Assembly (NCBI RefSeq): GCF_055900595.2
Contig: NZ_CM148325.1
Length of the DNA: 64,000 nucleotides
Reading direction: 5' to 3' (one strand)
Positions 28,162 to 29,770 of this stretch are shown piece after piece. Under the pieces are notes generated by a model that saw only the letters and a list, made by a program, of their open reading frames with translations, was not told where the DNA came from and ran no database searches. Position 1 is the stretch's first letter; each line of letters starts with the position of its first letter. A program made the position numbers and the translations under genes.

Positions 28162-29770
28162 CTGCTTTTCTCACATTTGCAGATTTTAAAAAAGCAAACA
28201 AAAACCTCCGTACATGATGTACAGAACAATCTACCAGGTAGTGGCGTCAGAAAACCCCCGGGCCGCCTGCACTTTCCGGAATGCGCCGGTTATGAAAAAC
28301 CGGAAATTCAGTCTCTGTTGTAAGATGTACCCTCTGATACTACGTTTTCTCTGTGTATTTAACTCACTGTATTTATTGTCTTTTTAAGCTTGACTGATAT
28401 TCTCCGGTCATAGTGTGCCGGATATACATCCCGTAAACTTCTCATTTTTATATAAAAATACCTGCACTCTCTTCAGCGCATCTGTCTCCTTTAAGTAAAA
28501 AATGTTTTCACGTATTGCTGTAAATTCATTTTAAATCAGTATATTACCTTGATATTGCTGTCTCCTGGTTTGATGCGTAATCGTTCTGCCTTTCTGGATG
28601 ATTCTGGTGCTTCCGGGTGCATTCTCCTCTGCACATGCAACAGTTCGTCATCGCCACGCTCCCAAAAAGCATATAAAAACGAATCGAATTTGATATTTTT
28701 TTCAATCGTTTTTCATAGGAATTTCGTAGGGTATTCTCCGCTATAACCTCCATATTTGCTGCCTTTTTCTCCATAAATCGTATGCAATATAGCCTGTCTG
28801 TCAAGACCTCTTCTCTGCTGTTGAGGAGACGATCTCATTTTTGGTCTTTTCCGGGAGAGAGGCTGTCAGATGAGCGAGCCGGATATACTGTCAGAGGTAC
28901 ACCCCGTAGCAGACCTGTGCTCCCATTTCCGCGATCCGGAACCAACAACACCCTACGGTTAATACCATTTGAAGCGTCAGGTACTGCAGGAAGTTCCCCC
29001 CTGCGCGGACATCGGTTCCTGCCGACATCTCACAATACGGCCAGACTGTCATGCAGTAACACCCGCATGCGGTCTGCGGTTTTAAGCGCACTCTCCCGTT
29101 TTCAGTGCACCGATAATGCGTCATAGTAAGTCTGGGGGAAGTTACGGAATGCCTGTTAAGTGGTGCCGTGGGTGGAGACAGCTTACTTTTCTACAGCAAC
29201 TGCAGTCATTCAGGATGATCAGGAGATATTCTGTCAATGTCACGATCCTGCCATTTTCGTACCCGCTAAGATACTTCCGTTACTGATGCTGTCCGCTTTT
29301 CACCATTTCATCCTCACTGACAGGCGTTGCGTTTTGGGTCATCACCACAGCTTTACGTTTCTCTTTTAACCGGTAACGCTCTCCTTTGATATTCAGCGTG
29401 GTTGAGTGATGCAGCAGTCAATCCAGGAGCGCTGTTGTCCGGCAACCACCATATCAACTTCTTCCCGGGTGTGGCGGAGAGGTGGTATCCTGGCTGAGTT
29501 TCGAAGCGAACCGTTCTTTTTGACGGGCGCATTTTACGTCCGGGCTGAATGTAGTAACGCGGCATGGAACGTCGGCCCGTATACCATTGCCTTAATCTCC
29601 GCAAAGATAACCTCGTCATTCCGGACATTCTCTGCCAGGCATATGTCGATGTAATCCATAAACGATTTCAGCTTACCCCTTTGTTGTCACGAACGGTGCA
29701 ATAGTGATCCACACCCAACGCCTGAAATCAGATCCAGGGGGTAATCTGCTCTCCTGATTCAGGAGAGCTT

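Follow-up and report, generated by a model that had tools for sequence, protein, structure and literature searches.

A composite of upstream region, filler and IS21-family relic probably accounts for an open-reading-frame-poor stretch beside IS100 in an Escherichia coli CP4-44-type island

Introduction

The CP4-44 island of Escherichia coli K-12 lies between cobU and yeeX/tmaR and has a backbone of yeeW, cbtA, cbeA, yeeT and yeeS followed by an antirestriction gene, a DUF932 gene and a GTPase gene. An island of this CP4-44/GI-cobU type occupies the same site, with the same backbone, in the E. coli chromosome segment analysed here, a stretch of 64,000 nucleotides (the window; NCBI RefSeq assembly GCF_055900595.2, contig NZ_CM148325.1). 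Its cargo is a patatin-RdcB-dynamin cluster, which stands where K-12 CP4-44 has flu. Between the hypothetical gene g387 and the insertion sequence IS100 the island contains a further stretch, 28162–29684, that is wholly absent from the 20-kb CP4-44 region of K-12. A tract of 1.5 kb without annotation is unusual given the coding density of E. coli. The preliminary description of the stretch as poor in open reading frames (ORFs) had offered several explanations: degraded coding sequence, an untranslated or regulatory region, small RNAs, or remnants of an attachment or integrase region. The analysis presented here indicates that the stretch is probably not a hidden gene and instead combines non-functional with cis-acting DNA, being made up of the upstream region of the backbone operon, a filler and a relic of an IS21-family element.

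Two described systems serve as references for these parts. IS21 encodes the transposase IstA and the AAA+ helper IstB, and the C-terminal IstB fragment, the N-terminal IstA fragments and the outer repeat of the relic share its order and orientation; unlike IS21, the relic has neither the left end nor the first ~30 codons of istA. The AT-rich segment beside g387 (699 bp, G+C content (GC) 0.40) may be compared with H-NS-type silencing regions, the long AT-rich tracts ahead of horizontally acquired operons, in that it immediately precedes the opening gene of an operon in the island, a likeness of composition and position. Literature on the island (GI-CFT073-cobU; CP4-44 with IS100) yielded nothing relevant to the region of the stretch.

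Results

Extent and coding content of the stretch

The right edge of the stretch is exact, as the left inverted repeat of IS100 begins at 29685. The left edge is given by the GTG at 28161 that starts the longest ORF of g387. The start of this gene is ambiguous: the GTG at 28149, preceded at a distance of 6 nt by the Shine-Dalgarno sequence GAGG, is the start used by RefSeq, in the equivalent position, and by the protein P0165 (VGKELDD start), and the stretch would gain 12 nt at this end if the RefSeq start holds. With g387 excluded, the largest start-to-stop ORF overlapping 28100–29720 has 114 amino acids (aa; 28782–29126, plus strand), which bears out the earlier statement that no ORF above ~115 aa occurs here. 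The longest stop-to-stop frame, of 135 codons, compares with 105 ± 24 codons in shuffles of these 1523 bases, 12.8% of which reach at least 135, and the ORF content of 28162–29684 is as expected by chance from non-coding sequence.

An IS21-family relic interrupted by IS100

The right 30% of the stretch (29232–29684) consists of IstA and IstB pseudogene fragments, so that the proposal of degraded coding sequence holds for this part. With the IS21 copy on plasmid NZ_CP054233.1 as reference for blastn and tblastn, the relic and IS21 were 87–92% identical at the DNA level. The blastn alignments run along the minus strand: IS21 nt 1977–2165 correspond to 29437–29249 (90% identity), nt 316–564 to 29682–29434 (87%), which covers IstA residues 54–134 across a frameshift, and nt 281–317 to 31675–31639, on the far side of IS100. 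At the protein level, tblastn aligned residues 214–266 of the AAA+ protein IstB with 29438–29280 at 81% identity (expectation (E) value 5e-24) and residues 85–119 of the transposase IstA at 89% identity (E 5e-15), and placed IstA residues 41–51 beyond IS100. IS21 nt 565–1976, ~1.4 kb, are deleted inside the relic. The fragments are of transposase type and do not derive from an integrase or attachment region.

The terminus of the relic at 29232, TGTCAATGTCACGAT, matches the IS21 right inverted repeat (IRR), TGTCAACGCCACGAT, at 13 of 15 positions, and at 14 of 14 in variant L007. Local alignment placed a 12-nt deletion behind this terminal repeat and found no left terminus, IS21 homology stopping at 31697. 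RefSeq labels the pieces as 'AAA family ATPase' and 'IS21 family transposase' pseudogenes, and in strain IHE3034 a fragment with the label 'IS21 family transposase' lies immediately beyond IS100. The possibility that the relic is a complete mobile IS21 (~2.1 kb, intact istA and istB) is ruled out by the internal deletion, the 5' truncation, the istA frameshift and the IS100 insertion.

IS100, an element of Yersinia and E. coli, is ordinary here in every feature: it has the 28-nt inverted repeats (29685–29712 and 31611–31638), the istA and istB genes and the 5-bp target duplication, and RefSeq annotates identical DNA as IS100 istA/istB. Its target was, by chance, the older IS21-family relic. 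Because the IS21 homology resumes beyond IS100, the site of the IS100 insertion lay within an older element of IS21 type, from which nt 565–1976 were already missing. Island copies without IS100 exist, for example in ATCC 11775. The relic itself was found in lineages merely 86–89% identical and at other chromosomal places (E24377A, strain 3059 and L009). These alignments identify the relic as the right-hand remainder of an old IS21-family element whose left end and ~1.4 kb of internal sequence have been lost. It was already there in the common ancestor of all sampled island copies and was split later by IS100 in the lineage of this strain.

Distribution and homology of the left part

The rest of the stretch, its left part (1070 bp at 28162–29231; 1087–1129 bp in the genome survey), is present as a unit in about 2,070–2,100 of the 5,426 complete genomes of E. 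coli, with 80–100% coverage and 87–100% identity. Some genomes have as many as four copies, at differing chromosomal sites. The module is stable and widespread, and ~40% of sequenced E. coli carry the island. Three matches in a plasmid collection were all near-identical copies of the module itself, and no phage homologues of the left part were found. A 24-mer of the most conserved block had no match in a one-genome-per-species collection, though it is carried by E. coli ATCC 11775 (L002), the GTDB representative of E. coli; either a different genome stands for the species in that collection or the scan overlooked the 24-mer, and the negative applies to the representative genomes of other species. 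In strains represented by IHE3034 (L004), L007 and L008, the module of g387, the stretch and the IS21 relic adjoins cargo of other kinds, for example a TonB-dependent receptor with an FecCD-type ABC transporter, an Ag43 autotransporter, or a set of LysR, hydrolase and MFS genes.

No coding sequence is annotated inside the left part in any RefSeq record listed or fully read, and no Pfam, NCBIfam or PHROG family was found for its ORFs. As a substitute for the blastx check suggested in the preliminary description, all stop-to-stop frames of at least 40 aa in the six reading frames were joined and compared by phmmer with 1.84 billion representative proteins. The 49 matches, all 35–190 aa long and 64–99% identical, were ORF calls on the identical E. 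coli locus, several of which read TGA as W or switch frames. This negative outcome is valid because the control proteins P0001, P0004 and P0007 were recovered. No frame of 28100–29300 has a homologue outside the locus by phmmer, Pfam, NCBIfam or PHROGs; the pseudogene fragments on the right were recovered by blastn and tblastn. The suggested Rfam search was also run, and Rfam 15 cmscan over 26500–35500, on both strands and with E values up to 1, returned no match. Public protein collections contain many spurious proteins translated from this DNA, from short metagenomic and Logan contigs, with TGA as W or with frameshifts, and such translations mimic full-length homologues in searches.

Comparison with related islands and proposed role of the left part

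In related islands the gene order is GTPase (minus), g387 orthologue (minus), intergenic region, AlpA (plus), g201 (plus), Gp2 (plus) and cargo (BREX, Dnd or fimbriae). Of the genes that occupy the place of g387 there, only the one of Yersinia is clearly homologous to it. Over 188 aa, the C-terminal half of g387 shares 29% identity (E 7e-23) with the protein encoded upstream of the GTPase gene in a Yersinia relative. The upstream intergenic regions of these relatives measure 477–640 bp with a GC of 0.33–0.41 in Klebsiella, Yersinia and Salmonella, and the AT-rich segment of the left part matches them in size and composition. No family of Pfam, NCBIfam, PHROG or PADLOC was found for the g387 protein. 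In M160133 its gene carries a frameshift annotation, and constraint on the gene is weak, with a ratio of non-synonymous to synonymous substitution rates (dN/dS) of 0.4–0.64.

Compared with the relatives (L013–L017), the E. coli lineage has the AlpA-g201 pair in inverted orientation with respect to both the GTPase module and the Gp2 module. The stretch and a second ORF-poor gap, at 33404–34529, flank the inverted pair, and the IS relic lies at one of the junctions. This arrangement suggests that both gaps may be scars of an old rearrangement.

The left part is best read as the 'untranslated or regulatory region' of the earlier proposals. The segment 28162–28860 would be the AT-rich region that ancestrally lay upstream of the g387-GTPase backbone operon, and it most likely carries the operon promoter together with a silencing region. 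An Hha-family protein is encoded by other island lineages, and an Hha pseudogene is present in the window. A hairpin on the minus strand (28226–28206) has a 9-pair stem followed by GTTTTTGTTT and fits the pattern of an intrinsic terminator; as a predicted terminator placed before g387 it would block read-through from upstream. All five variants in the alignment retain its stem, the base of which shows a single change affecting both sides. The sequence at 28861–29231 would be decayed filler. The filler (28839–29231) contains 43-nt and 18-nt indels, is 62–90% identical between lineages and has a folding z-score of 0.0.

Conservation, folding and the minus-strand RNA alternative

Identity between lineages varies along the stretch. 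It is mostly 88–100% over 28260–28860, with 95–100% over 28347–28650, falls to 27–87% over 28860–29000, which includes the 43-nt indel, and is 68–83% over 29227–29300. The dead IstB fragment at 29346–29430 is 97–100% identical in L006 and L007 and 88–92% identical in L009. Because L007 and L009 otherwise belong to the same lineage, their difference at this fragment indicates mosaic recombination, and since recombination of this kind also yields high identity, high identity by itself argues only weakly for function. Less weight was accordingly given to the conservation of the AT-rich block, since the dead IstB fragment is equally conserved in some lineages and not in another.

Several observations nevertheless weigh against reading the AT-rich segment simply as the upstream region of the operon. 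The identity of the block exceeds that of plain neutral decay, the flanking genes differing by ~0.2 per synonymous site. The minus strand of 28190–28540 folds better than 100 of 100 shuffles. Finally, the hairpin sits between most of the AT-rich block and g387 and leaves ~35 nt for a downstream promoter, so that the picture of a promoter region is incomplete.

An alternative that takes up these observations, and that appears unlikely, is that the AT-rich block encodes a minus-strand RNA, either a non-coding RNA of 0.3–0.6 kb ending at the terminator-like hairpin at 28226–28196 or a long structured leader or attenuator of the g387-GTPase-dynamin-patatin operon. The folding signal is strand-specific (z-score −2.7 on the minus and +0.2 on the plus strand), and a second terminator-like hairpin on the minus strand (28480–28463) has, like the one next to g387, a stem kept in all variants. 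A conserved promoter-like sequence, TTGACA-16-TACGAT, lies on the minus strand at 28804–28777, and the proportion of synonymous differences (pS) of ~0.2 in the flanking genes contrasts with the identity over 28347–28650. However, the two promoter-like sites found do not exceed the 2.9 expected from shuffles, and the high identity is explicable by the mosaic recombination seen at the IstB fragment of L006 and L007. RNAalifold, which has little power with five near-identical variants, gave an unfavourable covariation term of +2.08, with one compensatory pair in 97 and many long-range pairs broken. The block corresponds to no Rfam family, and the element that contains it is confined to E. coli. 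The suggestion of small RNAs in the preliminary description thus gained no backing from Rfam or covariation, and what remains of it is the mild strand-specific folding and the terminator-like hairpin.

ORF100

The second alternative concerns ORF100, a 100-codon frame on the minus strand of the AT-rich segment, which might represent a recently inactivated, lineage-specific gene for a small basic protein of 100 aa, with the rest of the left part as its untranslated flanks. The frame is unusually long for a region with a GC of 0.40, a single in-frame TGA is its sole defect in most variants, and it is uninterrupted in some E. coli (proteins P0002 and P0003; copies of the L009 and L010 type, in which the codon is CGG). 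The TGA is present in six of eight variants (the window and five others) that span both deep lineages, and the open version, which belongs to one sub-lineage, requires two substitutions (TGA to CGG); for these reasons the stop is probably ancestral. In E24377A the frame is further broken by a 2-nt frameshift.

The substitution pattern of the frame is not of a coding type. The dN/dS of ORF100 was 0.66–0.78 in frame and 0.34–0.76 off frame, whereas the positive controls g201 and AlpA, with a pS of ~0.2, gave 0.14–0.30 in frame and 1.3–4.3 off frame. A second frame across the same DNA is open for 96 codons. The search for homologous proteins returned 33 matches, and all database matches were ORF calls at the same locus in E. 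coli; no homologue was found outside the locus, no match in Pfam, PHROG or NCBIfam, and no annotation of ORF100 as a coding sequence in the RefSeq records listed or fully read. The longer 'homologues' P0001, P0005–7, P0012, P0017, P0020, P0033 and P0154–6 were rejected as evidence for a gene since they have W at the TGA or switch frames, which marks them as ORF calls from this very DNA made with an alternative code or containing errors. Selenocysteine insertion or readthrough at the TGA was also rejected: by inspection the TGA is followed by a single AU-rich hairpin, with no GC-rich hairpin resembling a selenocysteine insertion sequence (SECIS), and a coding signature is lacking. ORF100 is not a demonstrable gene and probably not a gene, and its recent inactivation is a quite doubtful explanation of the left part.

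Attachment site or integrase

A remnant of an attachment site or of the island's integrase gene is a very improbable account of the stretch, and one largely refuted. The island lies near three tRNA-Asn genes, and no integrase gene occurs among the annotated features of the 25.5-kb RefSeq island copy or the ORFs examined, which makes a decayed integration module somewhere plausible. However, the tRNA-Asn 3' end (17–25 nt, up to 2 mismatches) has no copy outside these three genes, no frame of the stretch shows integrase homology, and in the relatives the integration end does not lie between g201 and the g387 orthologue.

The second ORF-poor gap and other features of the island

The coordinates of the features are given in Table 1. 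The preliminary description had also pointed out the second gap, upstream of alpA, and the RefSeq copies confirm that it is without annotation. Because it contains an Hha/YmoA-family fragment with an in-frame stop, this gap is at least partly decayed coding sequence. In other island lineages this place is taken by an Hha gene that is intact (49 aa) and by a UCP007319 gene of 263 aa; no remnant of the latter was found in the gap. A further ORF-poor tract of 800 bp without annotation lies to the right of IS100 (31698–32500). It is specific to the lineage of the window, IHE3034 and PF9285, because homology to islands of the E24377A type resumes only at 32517, and in ATCC 11775 an IS150 is inserted at ~31989. 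Homologues of g201 with ~60% identity occur in Klebsiella, Yersinia, Salmonella and other genera; two related g201 loci were found in viral contigs, both close to the E. coli type.

On the other side of g387, an IS66-family element of 2.7 kb splits the GTPase gene in this strain. The gene is uninterrupted in M160133 and ATCC 11775, with an offset difference of 2706 bp. The cargo operon, in the position of Ag43 in K-12 CP4-44, encodes a patatin-like phospholipase, an RdcB-family protein and a 798-aa dynamin-family protein. Its PADLOC matches are weak (LeoBC, 8.8e-5; phospholipase effector, 5e-4), and it may be a dynamin system resembling Eleos/LeoABC with a phospholipase.

Table 1 Features of the stretch and of the surrounding island, with positions in the window.
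Feature	Position	Strand	Description or basis
Island	~13–42 kb		Between sbmC/yeeA and cobUST
Cargo operon	18752–23117		Patatin, RdcB, dynamin
IS66-family element	24100–26920		
IS66 tnpC	24160–25731	minus	523 aa
IS66 tnpB		minus	115 aa
IS66 tnpA		minus	225 aa
g387	26998–28161	minus	387-aa hypothetical gene; backbone gene upstream of GTPase gene
AT-rich segment beside g387	28162–28860		699 bp, GC 0.40 (window 0.50)
Terminator-like hairpin UCUGUACAUCAUGUACGGAG with U-tract	28196–28226	minus	Pattern scan; 35–65 nt upstream of g387 start
AT-rich conserved non-coding block	28227–28535	none	Composition, identity, folding
ORF100	28536–28838	minus	100-codon frame; in-frame TGA at 28713–28715
GC-normal indel-rich filler	28839–29231	none	GC 0.53 over 28861–29231
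IS21-family relic, part 1	29232–29684	minus	blastn, tblastn, terminus alignment, RefSeq pseudogenes, plasmid IS21 matches
Relic outer inverted repeat	29232–29246	minus	Local alignment to IS21 IRR
IstB C-terminal fragment	29280–29438	minus	tblastn
Frameshifted IstA fragment	29432–29674	minus	tblastn
TTTGT target duplication (5 bp), left	29680–29684		Read from sequence at IS100 repeat borders
IS100	29685–31638	plus	1954 bp
IS100 istA	29771–30793	plus	340 aa
IS100 istB	30790–31572	plus	260 aa
TTTGT target duplication (5 bp), right	31639–31643		Read from sequence at IS100 repeat borders
IS21-family relic, part 2	31639–31697	minus	IstA ~aa 33–51; blastn, tblastn, local alignment
g201	32501–33118	minus	201 aa
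AlpA-type regulator	33197–33403	minus	Followed by Gp2/YfjJ-type and zinc-ribbon genes
Hha/YmoA-family pseudogene fragment	34143–34274	plus	56% identity over 45 aa, in-frame stop; inside second gap
Yersiniabactin island start (fyuA)	59.7 kb		Beyond cobUST and three tRNA-Asn genes

Discussion

The stretch between g387 and IS100 is ordinary island backbone that is partly annotated already in RefSeq. About a third of it is a RefSeq-annotated scar of an IS21-family element, and the result settles a question more than it raises new ones. For annotation, its value is that two ORF-poor tracts flank the inverted AlpA-g201 pair and would mark old rearrangement and IS activity. The block at ~28196–28860, which is 93–100% conserved, could also give rise to a minus-strand transcript, a long structured leader or stand-alone RNA that is ended or attenuated by the hairpin next to g387 and controls the GTPase-dynamin-RdcB-patatin operon; this is quite improbable on present evidence. 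Were the AT-rich block such a regulatory leader, it would be relevant to the way in which the dynamin and patatin cargo of the island is switched on.

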